Positions 3,264-64,000 of a DNA stretch of 64,000 bases are shown one piece after another; the first letter of the stretch is position 1; every line of letters begins with the position of its first letter. The notes under the pieces were generated by a model. The model had not been told where the DNA came from, did no database searches, and saw nothing but the letters and a program-made list of their open reading frames with translations. Source of the DNA: a phage; the sequence record OZ413487.1; one strand, 5' to 3'. The translations under genes were made by a program, and so were the position numbers.

Positions 3264-3509
3264 ATGACTGAAGCAGTTGCTCGCGCAGGACAGAAAGTAC
3301 GTTGTGTTGAAGTAGGTTTTGGTGGCAAAGGGTGTCAAAACTTGACTCAAGGTAAGGAATACGCTGTTATCTCTGGGGGTGGAGACGAAAGTATTGTGTT
3401 CGAGGGCCACATCCTGGATGCTGAAAACTTTGAAATCTTTGACGACGATGGGGACCCGATCACCTGCCTGCTGGACGGGAATTGGGGAACTTTCGAAGTG
3501 ATTGGCTAA
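3264..3509 (+). CDS. hypothetical protein
   Basis: 81 aa; CAGGAGA SD; Gly-rich acidic product. Confidence 0.55.
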   Translation: MTEAVARAGQKVRCVEVGFGGKGCQNLTQGKEYAVISGGGDESIVFEGHILDAENFEIFDDDGDPITCLLDGNWGTFEVIG

Positions 3510-3592
3510 CAAATACCTATTGTAATTTACAGAAGGGGATGCTAAAATAGTGTCTCCTTCTATGTTGTTCAAATAAAATCGGAGATTCCATA

Positions 3593-3958
3593 ATGGAACA
3601 AATGAACGATCAAGCGTCGGTTGCGATGAACGAGCAAGAACAACCTCAAGAATTTTTCTTAGGGTTAAGTAAAGATCAAGTGTCTCTTCTGCTAGTGCTT
3701 TCTTCTTTCATGGGAAGACTTCAGGAGCTTACACAACAGCCAGAGGCTGAACAATTATTCCAGGCTCTGCGTGAAGAAGAAAAATATCGTCGTTTGGACT
3801 ATGCCTTAGGTTGGGTAGCTCAACAACGAGATATGCTGATGGCCCTCTCTGGGACCACAAGTTTTGCAATGGGCCTGTTGGCTCAAGTTCAGGACAAATT
3901 AATTCAAGCAGGGTTTGCACACACGGCAAACACTAACGAAGAACAAGGAGATAAATAA
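3593..3958 (+). CDS. hypothetical protein
   Basis: 121 aa; GGAGA SD; Q/E-rich. Confidence 0.55.
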   Translation: MEQMNDQASVAMNEQEQPQEFFLGLSKDQVSLLLVLSSFMGRLQELTQQPEAEQLFQALREEEKYRRLDYALGWVAQQRDMLMALSGTTSFAMGLLAQVQDKLIQAGFAHTANTNEEQGDK

Positions 3959-5184
3959 TGAGCGTTATTCAACAATTCGCTAACCCGATGAATCCGCGTG
4001 AAACTGTTTTACTAGCTCACGGCATGATTAAACGTGTCAGCATCAAGCCTATCAAAGGTGCTGATCCTACAACAGGTATTAAAACCACTGTGTGGCAAGG
4101 TAAGAAAATTGAATCCAGCCACACCATCTCTTTACTGATTTCTGAACTGGATTCCTCTGATAACCTACTTCAAGGTGGTGAAGAAGTTTGGATCAGTATG
4201 GGCGATAAGCTGCTTAAACCAGGTCATCAAGACTCTGTCTCTGTTAAAATTGATGACAAGTGGGAAACCGTAACGCCAGGATGGATCGTAAATATCCCTT
4301 TGAAGGCAAACGAGCATAACGGTAAGACCTACTACAAAGGCTCACTGGCTAAGATGGTTAAGCTGGGTGCAGGAGAGGCTCCAGCAGCGACTCAGCAGCA
4401 AAAACAGCAACAAGGTGCACAATCACAAGGCCAGAAGCAGAAACCTCAGCAGAATGCCAATCAGGACGTTTTACGCATCTATGGTGATGTGACTCAGATT
4501 GTTGGCAACGTGGTTACTGTTAATGACCACAAGATTGGCGAAGGTGCTATGGTTGTCACTGATGAGCAGCTTAAAGACCTGGTGGTAGGTGGTCGTGTTG
4601 CAGCCATTGTTGACAAAGACACCGGAAACATTATCAGTGGCTTCAAGGCCTATCCTCCTAAGGCAGAGAACGGCACTCAAGGCTCTGGTGGCAAGCGTAA
4701 ATCCTCTTACGACCCTATCGGTGTGGAGACGGGACATAGCATCAATGCGTTGCAGATCATCCTGGATCGCGGGTTTAAGGTGGACGACCCACTAGGCGTG
4801 GCTAAAACACTGCACGTAGTCACCATTGAGCTTAAGAAAGAGTATGCTCAAGCCACCAACCGAACTGAAGATGAAGTAGGTGCCAGTGTCGGCAATGCGG
4901 TGTTGAACGCTTGTCGCCGTATTGACAAGAAAACGAAAGTTGATGATTTTGCAGCGGCAATTACTGCAGAAGCAAAAGATGTCTTGACTAATCTGGCTGA
5001 GCCGTTGTACGATTGGATCAAGAACGGTGCTGGGTCCACTGACCATCAAGAACCTCAAGCTGCCAAACAGGAAGCAGCTCCACAGCAAAACACTGTAGAC
5101 GCTCCTCCTGTAAATGACGAGGAAGATGACCCGATGGATCAGAATCCAGCACAGTATGAGTTCGATGACTCGATCCCTTTCTGA
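3958..5184 (+). CDS. single-stranded DNA-binding protein-like (SSB-type acidic C-terminal tail)
   Basis: 408 aa; AAGGAGA SD; C-terminus ...EFDDSIPF matches the canonical SSB tip (D-D-D-I-P-F); Q-rich linker; OB fold not verified. Confidence 0.5.
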   Translation: MSVIQQFANPMNPRETVLLAHGMIKRVSIKPIKGADPTTGIKTTVWQGKKIESSHTISLLISELDSSDNLLQGGEEVWISMGDKLLKPGHQDSVSVKIDDKWETVTPGWIVNIPLKANEHNGKTYYKGSLAKMVKLGAGEAPAATQQQKQQQGAQSQGQKQKPQQNANQDVLRIYGDVTQIVGNVVTVNDHKIGEGAMVVTDEQLKDLVVGGRVAAIVDKDTGNIISGFKAYPPKAENGTQGSGGKRKSSYDPIGVETGHSINALQIILDRGFKVDDPLGVAKTLHVVTIELKKEYAQATNRTEDEVGASVGNAVLNACRRIDKKTKVDDFAAAITAEAKDVLTNLAEPLYDWIKNGAGSTDHQEPQAAKQEAAPQQNTVDAPPVNDEEDDPMDQNPAQYEFDDSIPF

Positions 5185-7734: not shown

Positions 7735-7925
7735 GAAACAAGAAAGAGCTTTACTCTGGCGAGTGGATCAACGATCAACAGGTCGGAGAGGTAACCTGCT
7801 TCCGATGTTTTACCAGGTACAATCTTAAAACTGCACCAAAAAGTGTTCCAAAGACTGATGGTTATTATATAAAAGAACCTCATTGCCCAAAATGTAAATG
7901 CCGATTGTACTGGAGCAATCTGTAA
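7731..7925 (+). CDS. small zinc-ribbon protein
   Basis: 64 aa; ATG 7731 after GGGGAGAG SD; CxxC...CPKCKC. Confidence 0.45.
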   Translation: MRNKKELYSGEWINDQQVGEVTCFRCFTRYNLKTAPKSVPKTDGYYIKEPHCPKCKCRLYWSNL

Positions 7926-7988
7926 GAGGTTGACATCTGAAAACTGCAGTGTATAATATACGCATAAACTAACAGAGAGCGATGTATT

Positions 7989-62680: not shown

Positions 62681-62709
62681 TTGACAAACTTTGCTTAACA
62701 GTGTAATAT
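62681..62709 (+). promoter_or_regulatory. sigma70-like promoter upstream of tRNA cluster
   Basis: TTGACA-N17-TAATAT about 60 nt before first tRNA. Confidence 0.55.
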
Positions 62710-62767
62710 TGTAAACATGGTCTCCCACCTTTTCTGGCGGCTAAGGTGTAAAAGAAAGCCACCCAGT

Positions 62768-62842
62768 GCCCTGTTAGCTTAGTGGATAAAGCAGCGGCCT
62801 TCTAAGCCGTTGACACTGGTTCGAGTCCAGTACGGGGTGCCA
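62768..62842 (+). tRNA. tRNA-Arg (anticodon TCT)
   Basis: Cloverleaf folded by hand: 7-bp acceptor (two G-U), loop CTTCTAA, T-loop TTCGAGT, encoded CCA. Confidence 0.7.
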
Positions 62843-62846
62843 AATT

Positions 62847-62933
62847 GGGGAGTTATCCCGTAGAGGTAGCGGTGTAGACTGTAAATCTATTGTCATTGCG
62901 ACTCGGGTGGTTCGACTCCACCACTCCCCACCA
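62847..62933 (+). tRNA. tRNA-Tyr (anticodon GTA), type II
   Basis: Acceptor ggggagt/actcccc, anticodon loop CTGTAAA, long variable arm, T-loop TTCGACT, CCA. Confidence 0.7.
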
Positions 62934-63047
62934 AATTTATATTTTTAGATGCATAAATAATACAGATAATGGCATTGATATTTATCGTCGTTTATACTAG
63001 TCACTAACTGCTCGAAAATCAGTGTCATTATCAGTATAATTTATAAA

Positions 63048-63138
63048 GGAGGGTAGGGAGCAATGGTGCTCAAGCGGTCTTGAAAACCGTCCCGTTGAGG
63101 ATGACTCGATGATGGTTCGATTCCATTACTCTCCGCCA
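63048..63138 (+). tRNA. tRNA-Ser (anticodon TGA), type II
   Basis: Acceptor ggagggt/actctcc, anticodon loop CTTGAAA, long variable arm, T-loop TTCGATT, CCA. Confidence 0.7.
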
Positions 63139-63236
63139 CATTGTTGACCTTGTAATTAAGCGAAAGCCGGAAGCAGAACCGGATTATCAAATGTTACAGT
63201 CGTCATCGCCGACTAGCAACATGGTCAACATGCTGA

Positions 63237-63335
63237 GCTAGGTAAGCCCTTTGGCAAGGGCGAGGATTTTTAATCCTGAAAATAGACGAGGTAGTCGTTG
63301 AATACATAGGTGGTTCGATTCCATCACCTAGCACC
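63237..63335 (+). tRNA. atypical tRNA-like element (possible tRNA-Lys TTT with long insertion, or pseudo-tRNA)
   Basis: Perfect 7-bp acceptor gctaggt/acctagc, good D-arm and T-arm (TTCGATT), but weak anticodon stem and about 30-nt insert before T-arm; no complete CCA. Confidence 0.3.
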
Positions 63336-63340
63336 TTTTT

Positions 63341-63416
63341 GCTGATGTAGCACAATCGGTAGTGCAATTGATTTGTAATCAATAGGTTGTAGGTTCAAAT
63401 CCTGCCATCAGCACCA
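63341..63416 (+). tRNA. tRNA-Thr (anticodon TGT)
   Basis: Acceptor gctgatg/catcagc, anticodon stem attga/tcaat, loop TTTGTAA, T-loop TTCAAAT, CCA. Confidence 0.8.
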
Positions 63417-63417
63417 A

Positions 63418-63492
63418 GGCCCTGTAGCTGGAAGGTTCAAGCAAGCGACTCATAATCGCCAGACGGTGGTTCAATTCCACCCAGGGCCACCA
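63418..63492 (+). tRNA. tRNA-Met (anticodon CAT; Met vs Ile2 not distinguishable)
   Basis: Acceptor ggccctg/cagggcc, loop CTCATAA, T-loop TTCAATT, CCA. Confidence 0.75.
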
Positions 63493-63503
63493 AATAGTAA
63501 ATA

Positions 63504-63581
63504 CTCCGCGTAGCTCAGCTTGGTAGAGCGCCTGATTTGGGATCAGGAGGTCGAGTGTTCGAATCACTTCGTGGAGACCAC
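63504..63581 (+). tRNA. tRNA-Pro (anticodon TGG)
   Basis: Acceptor ctccgcg/cgtggag, D-stem gctc/gagc, anticodon stem cctga/tcagg, loop TTTGGGA, T-loop TTCGAAT, CCA. Confidence 0.75.
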
Positions 63582-63626
63582 TTTCAGTTATACTTTAAAC
63601 ATATATAAACAAAAGGAACCTTTAAA

Positions 63627-63896
63627 ATGTATACACTTAAAATTGTAGAGCGTGTAAATCCAACCCATACTGTAGATTTTCGTGACGATTTCAATCCTCT
63701 GGCTGTAAATCTTCGAGAGTCATATCATGAACTCAGCTGCGATGCAGTGGTGGTCTTTTTTGAAGACAACTCTGAAGGGGCGGTAGCTTGTGTTGTTGAT
63801 AGTGAGCAGAAGTTTTATATTTACAGAGATGTAGATGCATACTTGATGAATGAAAACGCAGTTACTGTTAGAATCATCCACCGAGTGCCTCGATAA
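63627..63896 (+). CDS. hypothetical protein
   Basis: 89 aa; AAAAGGAA SD; followed by hairpin plus T-run. Confidence 0.5.
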   Translation: MYTLKIVERVNPTHTVDFRDDFNPLAVNLRESYHELSCDAVVVFFEDNSEGAVACVVDSEQKFYIYRDVDAYLMNENAVTVRIIHRVPR

Positions 63897-63949
63897 GTAT
63901 TAGTCTCCTTTTAGTTAGTTTCGATCTATTTAGGTTACTCAATTTTAAC

Positions 63950-63986
63950 CCGCCCCGTTAGCTGTATAGCTGCGGGGTTTTTTCGT
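63950..63986 (+). terminator. rho-independent terminator
   Basis: ccccg...cgggg hairpin followed by TTTTTTCG. Confidence 0.5.
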
Positions 63987-64000
63987 TTCTGGAGCCTTAA

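Follow-up and report, generated by a model that had tools for sequence, protein, structure and literature searches.

A tRNA-like element at positions 63237-63335 (+ strand), situated in the tRNA operon of a coliphage of rV5 type, represents in rV5 a conserved family of RNAs shaped like tRNAs, all of which carry an extra module of 31-41 bases. The DNA analysed, referred to here as the window, is a stretch of 64,000 nucleotides of sequence record OZ413487.1, and its 3' end (62700-64000) is 99.7% identical to Escherichia phage rV5 (Vequintavirus). Comparative sequence evidence indicates that the element is a real RNA gene, and neither a chance resemblance, a pseudogene nor an intron-bearing tRNA. 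The family is apparently undescribed, and no published description of the element or of its relatives was found in the literature searched.

A cluster of genes on the + strand was detected with ARAGORN in the order tRNA-Arg(UCU), Tyr(GUA), Ser(UGA), the element, Thr(UGU), Met(CAU) and Pro(UGG), the element being called at exactly 63237-63335 (+) as 'tRNA-???' with a four-base anticodon. The general tRNA model of Rfam (RF00005) matches it from 63237 to 63333 with 35.5 bits, against a gathering score of 29, and the alignment contains a 26-nt insertion in the variable region and a 7-nt loop, UUUUUAA. A sequence-only reading of this DNA had labelled the region an atypical tRNA-like element with the ends that ARAGORN now gives, and had proposed tRNA-detection software as a check; both ARAGORN and Rfam recognise the element, and neither found at this locus a canonical 76-nt tRNA with different boundaries. 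The perfect acceptor stem (7/7) and the canonical D and T arms that had been described were confirmed by direct reading and by the minimum free energy (MFE) fold, a five-arm cloverleaf of -34.2 kcal/mol (z = -3.66) whose stability was equalled by none of 200 shuffled sequences, and the extra sequence of about 30 nt before the T arm was measured as 31 nt (63278-63308). No Rfam family outside the tRNA clan, tmRNA and YrlA-type RNAs included, matches the element at E<=10; the search covered a 2-kb stretch, and the remaining matches outside the tRNA clan fall beyond the element. The rV5 GenBank record marks P(tRNA) at the site matching a promoter-like sequence at 62681-62709, and the element would belong to a tRNA operon transcript started there. 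The features of the element and its promoter-like site are as follows.

62681..62709, + strand: promoter-like site of sigma-70 type, TTGACA-17-TAATAT, found by consensus scan upstream of the tRNA cluster
63237..63243, + strand: 5' strand of the acceptor stem, GCUAGGU, with 7/7 Watson-Crick pairs to 63326-63332
63244..63245, + strand: positions 8 and 9, A8 and A9, of which A8 is invariant
63246..63261, + strand: D arm, GCCC / UUUGGCAA / GGGC, with G18 and G19
63262, + strand: invariant G preceding the anticodon-like hairpin and facing the invariant G at 63278 (G/G in 27/27)
63263..63277, + strand: anticodon-like hairpin, AGGA-UUUUUAA-UCCU, with the 'anticodon' UUU at 63269-63271
63278..63284, + strand: 5' flank of the extra module, GAAAAUA, a conserved single strand
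63285..63299, + strand: extra hairpin, G·U plus ACGA / GGUAG / UCGU
63300..63308, + strand: 3' flank of the extra module, GAAUACAUA, a conserved single strand with A48 as its last base
63309..63325, + strand: T arm, GGUGG / UUCGAUU / CCAUC
63326..63332, + strand: 3' strand of the acceptor stem, ACCUAGC, pairing with 63237-63243
63333..63335, + strand: the discriminator A73, followed by CC; a U comes next, which leaves CCA incompletely encoded

The tRNA-Thr gene starts 5 nt beyond the end of the element, and CCA is encoded by all six canonical tRNAs of the window, whereas the element encodes CC only.

Several other features were observed around the element. The 98-nt spacer that separates it from tRNA-Ser (63139-63236, +) has a closed three-way fold of its own (z = -2.15), in which the closing stem GTTGACC/GGTCAAC is replaced in other rV5-like contigs by AGGATCA/TGATCCT or GGATCATG/CATGATTC, changes that are compensatory, and in which the two inner hairpins hardly vary; this spacer is a further candidate non-coding RNA, so far seen in Vequintavirus only. 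The CAU tRNA at 63418-63492 (+) is annotated as tRNA-Met in most records and as tRNA-Ile (ATA) in the BASEL records, and may be a lysidine-type tRNA-Ile2. Eighteen GenBank records of 'Campylobacter phage' (within MG065644-MG065682) are ~99.5% identical to rV5 in this region (window 62700-64000) and look like mislabelled or contaminating coliphage. Downstream of the end of the window, at 3485-4301 of the rV5 record, the annotation joins the large terminase from three pieces (ORF64ABC), a sign that the gene may be interrupted by intervening sequences.

The comparison with related phages that had been proposed yielded, by BLAST and pattern scans, 27 distinct homologues from two phage subfamilies (Vequintavirinae and Stephanstirmvirinae) and from metagenomes, each with the extra module. 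They occur in Vequintavirus and Avunavirus, in Seunavirus (phages of Salmonella and Cronobacter, and E. coli phage 4MG), in Mydovirus (Klebsiella, Raoultella), in Henunavirus (Erwinia), in the phi92-like Justusliebigvirus, which belongs to the other subfamily (Stephanstirmvirinae), and in uncultured relatives. The rV5 form was present in 129 phage records and a Seunavirus query retrieved 189, these being overlapping sets, and 56 records had the phi92-like form; the element is present in well over 200 sequenced phage genomes, relatives of rV5, PVP-SE1, phi92 and KB57. A covariance model of the family found one copy per genome fragment, always inside the tRNA cluster, and no second copy or paralogue, the next matches being class II tRNAs at ~25 bits. 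A search of 5,426 E. coli genomes with blastn gave no match even at E<=10 and the family pattern had no match in 185,579 reference genomes, and on this absence from the E. coli and bacterial reference genomes searched a host origin was rejected. An origin from the phage's own tRNA-Gly was likewise rejected, there being no particular similarity. In one KB57-like contig the nearest paralogue, by comparison of the acceptor, D and T parts, was tRNA-Cys (score 21 vs 10), but this kinship was not repeated in a second contig and is a lead only. ARAGORN does not detect the element in the scanned relatives outside Vequintavirus, and Rfam gave nothing better than sub-threshold tRNA-Sec matches for the homologues of Av-05, KE22 and pEp_SNUABM_01 and no match at E<=0.1 for those of GAP31 and KB57.

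Existing annotation of these loci is varied. The rV5 type record and the genome paper list six tRNAs and omit the element. The BASEL phage records name it tRNA-Lys, Murica-type records name it tRNA-OTHER (Asp|Gly), the JLBYU08 record has it as tRNA-Stop(tta), the LL12 record gives tRNA-Lys with the tRNAscan isotype prediction flagged as inconsistent, and in the Erwinia phages Hena1 and pEp_SNUABM_01 the homologue is annotated as a tca suppressor. Records that name the element a suppressor or a lysine tRNA are probably misleading.

The tRNA clusters of the relatives contain further unusual elements. In Avunavirus and Seunavirus an odd element lies downstream of the tRNA-like element (at ~1012-1285 of the Av-05 sequence and ~1020-1190 of the KE22 sequence), in which a closing stem that resembles an acceptor (7/7; AGTGTAT/ATACACT in Av-05) encloses an insert of >100 nt, and which also has an anticodon-like hairpin with G33; it is recognised by neither ARAGORN nor Rfam. 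At 1198-1280 of Av-05 there is a tRNA-like sequence with a long variable arm, which gave a sub-threshold tRNA-Sec match of 29.6 bits and no ARAGORN call. In V18 (854-943) and O157 typing phage 4 (~840-925) natural deletions have joined the beginning of tRNA-Tyr to the 3' portion of the element, the junction lying in the variable region in V18 and in the shared T-loop sequence in typing phage 4, and both fusions remove tRNA-Ser together with most of the element.

Covariation across the family points to selection on the structure. The seven acceptor, four D-stem, four anticodon-stem and five T-stem pairs are paired in 27/27 homologues, except for the D-stem pair 12-23 (25/27), and two or three pair types each are found at 3-70, 4-69, 5-68, 6-67, 11-24, 12-23, 13-22, 27-43, 30-40, 49-65, 50-64 and 51-63. 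Pairing holds in 97.8% of the cells of the family alignment, and both sides have changed in 12 of the 22 pairs, values for pairing and covariation that were reached by 0 of 500 shuffled controls, and controls in which the alignment was slid were only 31-46% paired. RNAalifold, unaided, recovered the acceptor, D and T helices; of the anticodon-like stem it found just three pairs, and it missed the extra hairpin altogether. Position 19 of the D loop and position 56 of the T loop are G-C in 19 sequences and U-A in eight, with zero exceptions, and this co-switch is direct evidence for a tRNA elbow, and hence for an L shape. The D loop reads UUUG[G/U][C/U]AA and is invariant apart from the bracketed positions, and RNAalifold can extend the D stem by the invariant U14-A21 and U15-A20. 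A8 occurs with U14, and U15 with A48, in 27/27 homologues; canonical tRNAs have U8-A14, the reverse of the A8-U14 seen here. The acceptor/T branch is 7/5 in all sequences.

The same constraint is apparent over shorter distances. Among rV5-like phages the element is nearly invariant while the adjacent spacers diverge, and the helix substitutions found in the rV5 clade all keep pairing (A66G gives U·G and U64C gives G-C). Between rV5 and Av-05 (~93% identity) the acceptor pair A4-U69 has become G4-C69, a compensatory change, and the DNA match spans the element but not its flanks, the surrounding gene order being different. On the evidence of these alignments the tRNA core is shown to be held under strong structural selection. 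The suggestion that the element might be a pseudo-tRNA has accordingly to be abandoned: a tRNA pseudogene should have disrupted helices without compensation, and in the 27 distinct homologues all helices are kept via compensatory changes.

The extra module is present in every homologue, is 31-41 nt in length (31 in rV5), and has a common layout in which a conserved GAAAA… strand is followed by a hairpin of free sequence and then by a conserved …AAUACAUA strand. The flanks, GAAAA(U/A)… and …(A)AUACAUA, are among the best conserved parts of the whole family. In the 5' flank the leading G never varies, nor do three of the A's after it, and A stands at the second base in 26/27, and in the 3' flank, which reads AAUACGAAA in the phi92-like phages, AUAC is invariant and the remainder nearly so. 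These unpaired conserved flanks are 7-10 nt long across the family (7 and 9 nt in rV5), and when 28 sequences were folded singly the 5' flank was unpaired in every fold. A hairpin between the flanks appeared in most of these 28 folds, a few folding otherwise, and its stems are unrelated across genera; between rV5 and Av-05 one of its pairs has changed from A-U to G-C, and one subgroup instead has a large conserved loop, GAACUAACAGUA. Two other roles for the module were considered and rejected. If the extra hairpin is taken as the anticodon arm of an alternative cloverleaf, its loops range from 4-14 nt and are unrelated between genera, and as regards an antisense role for the AAUACAUA strand, the complement TATGTATT occurs three times in the window against an expectation of 2.96, and one of these occurrences is the element itself.

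The anticodon-like arm had been thought to pair poorly, but its stem, AGGA/UCCU, has four Watson-Crick pairs with two further U-A pairs possible; the pairing appears poor only when the G·G on either side is counted as a fifth pair. Across the family the stem has four invariant pairs (27/27) between the invariant G·G, with covariation at 27-43 and 30-40. The loop is 5-8 nt depending on the extent of stem closure, and in the rV5 MFE fold it closes to 3 nt. The loops fall into the following sets.

phi92-like phages, Henunavirus and several uncultured lineages: N-A-U-C-A-A-R, 7 nt, "UCA" with A33
Seunavirus and Mydovirus: one extra pair, then C-N-N-C-C-A, 6 nt, in which variation is confined to loop positions 2 and 3 (33 and 34) and yields UCC or GCC
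Vequintavirus: UUUUUAA
Avunavirus: UUUAUAA
one metagenomic copy: GUGAUA

The N-A-U-C-A-A-R loop is probably ancestral, because its set is the most diverse. Uncultured relatives with the UCA type of the element also encode a CUA-anticodon, amber-reading tRNA (7862-7934; 2791-2865), which ARAGORN calls tRNA-Pyl. Position 37 is A in all homologues, U33 is missing in most genera (A33 or C33), and the triplet is variously UUU, UAU, UCC/GCC, UCA or GAU, so that the earlier reading of it as TTT (Lys) holds for the Vequintavirus clade only and fails for the orthologues; a canonical 7-nt loop can be drawn for the rV5 copy only. These odd loop lengths, the missing U33, the short stem and the shifting triplets speak against ordinary decoding by the family taken as a whole. 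However, the tRNA-Ile(GAU) directly upstream of the element in Seunavirus and Mydovirus has C33 for U33, and since a bona fide neighbouring tRNA lacks U33 its absence is weaker evidence against decoding here. That tRNA-Ile(GAU), at 636-710 of a Mydovirus sequence and 819-894 of KE22, is called '???(ga)' by ARAGORN in KB57 and is annotated as tRNA-Ser in VIK251.

The discriminator and 3' end also differ between genera. In most genera the discriminator is U73 and CCA is encoded, the rV5 group has A73 and encodes CC only, and Avunavirus has a U or C discriminator with CCA absent. Most homologues combine U73, G1-C72, C2-G71 and C35-C36. Under the identity rules of E. coli, U73 with C35-C36 fits GlyRS and U73 with C35-A36 fits CysRS, and the LysRS identity elements are A73 with U34-U35-U36. 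The coherence of such identity sets across genera suggests that the RNA may be charged, and is a lead only.

Set against the known classes of tRNA, the element shares something with each and conforms to none. It has the 7-bp acceptor stem, the D arm with G18G19, the 5-bp T stem, the UUCRAnn loop and the 19:56 pair of a canonical elongator, but it lacks the 5-bp anticodon stem, the 7-nt loop with U33, a triplet conserved among orthologues, and a canonical variable region, which would measure 4-5 nt or form a class II arm whose foot has no more than 1-2 unpaired bases. Like the class II tRNAs (Leu, Ser, Tyr), it combines a 7/5 architecture with G18G19 and a canonical T loop, and a helix emerges between its anticodon and T stems; it differs in its variable region, which at 31-41 nt has 7-9 conserved bases left unpaired to either side of the hairpin, in having A8/U14 rather than U8/A14, in its short anticodon stem flanked by G·G and in a loop that is unconserved among orthologues. 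The tRNA-Sec model (RF01852) is the best Rfam match for several homologues at 26-38 bits (26.5-37.6), below its gathering score of 47, and the two share a long variable arm and perhaps a 6-bp D stem with a 4-nt loop, which the element may form. The E. coli tRNA-Sec loop, CUUCAAA, differs from N-A-U-C-A-A-R essentially at position 33. The element departs from tRNA-Sec, however, in its 7/5 rather than 8/5 branch, in U73 (A73 in rV5) rather than G73, in an anticodon stem of 4 rather than 6 bp, in A33, and in the triplet UUU of rV5. The anticodons of allo-tRNAs also vary. According to Mukai et al. (2017, PMC5389517), allo-tRNAs are non-canonical cloverleafs whose variable arms are long, and they occur in bacteria and in the phages of these. 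Their defining feature is an 8/4 or 9/3 acceptor/T branch, whereas the branch of the element is 7/5. Its sequence features place the element as a tRNA-family RNA that fails the defining features of an elongator, a tRNA-Sec, an allo-tRNA, an intron-bearing tRNA and a pseudogene.

The role that we favour, at about an even chance of being correct, is that of a selected tRNA mimic, processed as a tRNA, rather than an ordinary elongator. Its position and shape suggest that it would be transcribed together with the neighbouring tRNAs from the operon promoter, that RNase P would cut its 5' end and 3' trimming enzymes process the other, and that in rV5 the host CCA-adding enzyme would supply the final A. 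The acceptor, T-arm and elbow core, together with the extra module, would then engage a tRNA-binding partner, a mimicry to which the loop and stem anomalies of the orthologues point, and aminoacylation is possible. Of the earlier proposals, that of a tRNA-derived regulatory RNA is the one preferred, its non-decoding role being favoured at the level of inference. Counting against a mimic, the rV5 copy can form a textbook lysine loop (U33, UUU, A37, A38) accompanied by A73 and so may decode, and the loop is conserved within clades with A37 universal, as in real anticodon loops. The deletion of the element in V18 and O157 typing phage 4, two Vequintavirus lineages, indicates that, though selected in nature, it is dispensable on some hosts, a combination that is usual for accessory host-interaction functions.

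The main rival, which we consider rather unlikely, is that in rV5 the element functions as an aminoacylated tRNA-Lys(UUU), which decodes AAA/AAG in spite of an oversized variable region and might provide lysine decoding when the host tRNA-Lys is attacked. The Rfam tRNA score above gathering, the 7-nt loop U32-U33-UUU-A37-A38, the match of A73 and U34-U35-U36 to the LysRS elements, the tRNA-Lys calls of tRNAscan-based annotations and the invariance of the loop among the Vequintavirus sequences examined all speak for it. So does the behaviour of the unmodified anticodon loop of E. coli tRNA-Lys, which tends to close and is opened by modifications. Opposed to it are the orthologues with other triplets or non-canonical loop lengths, a stem of four pairs plus G·G, in which nucleotide 26 is missing unless the stem is taken to lack one pair, a 31-nt variable region with single strands of 7 and 9 nt unlike any class II tRNA, a CCA that is unencoded here and encoded in the six canonical tRNAs of the operon, and the inconsistent isotype flagged in the LL12 record. 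Moreover, AAA and AAG are not rare codons in E. coli. A further point in favour is that phage tRNA-Lys variants are known counter-measures to the PARIS defence system (PMC11464382, PMC12409363). In that system A41C in tRNA-Lys substantially inhibits cleavage by AriB, and T5 tRNA variants rescue infection (PMC11464382, PMC12409363). The element resembles the T5 variants that escape this immunity (tRNA-Lys/Thr/Asn) in being phage-encoded, with a Lys-type stem-loop changed around the AriB site; in rV5 it reads U36-A-A-U-C-C41, and so differs from E. coli tRNA-Lys by A41C. In other respects the tRNAs of T5 are canonical decoders of 76 nt, whereas the element has the extra module and an aberrant stem. 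It adjoins tRNA-Thr(UGU), another AriB target, which in rV5 retains the sensitive UAAUCA site. The element could be a resistant surrogate, or a decoy, or unrelated to PARIS.

A more specific form of the mimic, and one that we regard as distinctly unlikely, is a charged RNA that decodes marginally or not at all, whose identity has been retuned between lineages (U73 with C35-A36 or C35-C36 in most genera, A73 with UUU in rV5) and which acts as a decoy for, or a nuclease-resistant stand-in against, tRNA-targeting immunity. Candidate targets would be PARIS/AriB, PrrC, retron effectors, Schlafens and GNAT toxins, the extra module serving as a handle that binds or blocks a host factor, and in rV5 the element would mimic tRNA-Lys(UUU), presenting the AriB motif UAAUC with the protective A41C. 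There is a precedent for charging without decoding in the non-proteinogenic tRNA-Gly of Staphylococcus, which is charged yet kept out of ribosomal decoding. Most homologues resemble it in carrying the E. coli GlyRS identity set, but the Staphylococcus tRNA is of normal size with a canonical anticodon loop and belongs to Gram-positive hosts, and we know of no aminoacyl-transferase partner in the phages that bear the element. The rV5-like phages are absent from the papers on PARIS/AriB specificity, on bacterial Schlafens and on phage tRNAs versus retron Eco7; a narrower search of the first PARIS paper found no BASEL phage of the rV5 group, and the passages on retron Eco2 contained nothing on the element.

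It has also to be asked whether the Vequintavirus and Avunavirus copies are relics drifting to loss from a family that is functional elsewhere, which we consider improbable. The encoded CCA has gone in this clade (ACCU, ACAU, UACA, CACA) with the discriminator A, U or C, the loop is now composed of U and A only, and two Vequintavirus lineages have lost most of the element. Drift is contradicted by the changes between rV5 and Av-05, which are compensatory in both the acceptor stem (A4-U69 to G4-C69) and the extra hairpin (A-U to G-C), by the near invariance of the element and the pair-preserving nature of its helix changes in rV5-like phages whose spacers diverge, and by a DNA match between rV5 and Av-05 that is limited to the element, the flanks being unmatched. 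Finally, it is hardly credible that this is a tRNA gene bearing an intron or insertion, as had been suggested, from which ~30 nt are removed to leave a normal tRNA, for beyond the excess length and the tRNA-sized RNA that remains once the module is taken out, the insert occupies the variable region, after the anticodon stem and before the T stem, and not 37/38 or the anticodon loop, is universal, with no insert-free homologue among the 27 distinct sequences, has flanks conserved like functional sequence, a pattern the opposite of that of an intron or a random insertion, and at 31-41 nt is far below the size of a group I intron, and Enterobacteria are not known to have bulge-helix-bulge splicing machinery.

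Phage tRNAs have lately moved to the centre of the conflict between phage and host, since tRNAs are cut or modified by many defence systems and phages respond with variants of their own, and the phages that carry the element are widely used for typing, biocontrol and therapy. The family reveals how far a tRNA core can depart from the norm and be maintained by selection: its variable region holds a module of 31-41 nt, its 8-14 pair is swapped and its anticodon arm is shortened. If the element does decode, the known limits of functional tRNA architecture would be stretched; if it is a mimic or decoy, it would represent a new class of RNA-based counter-defence.
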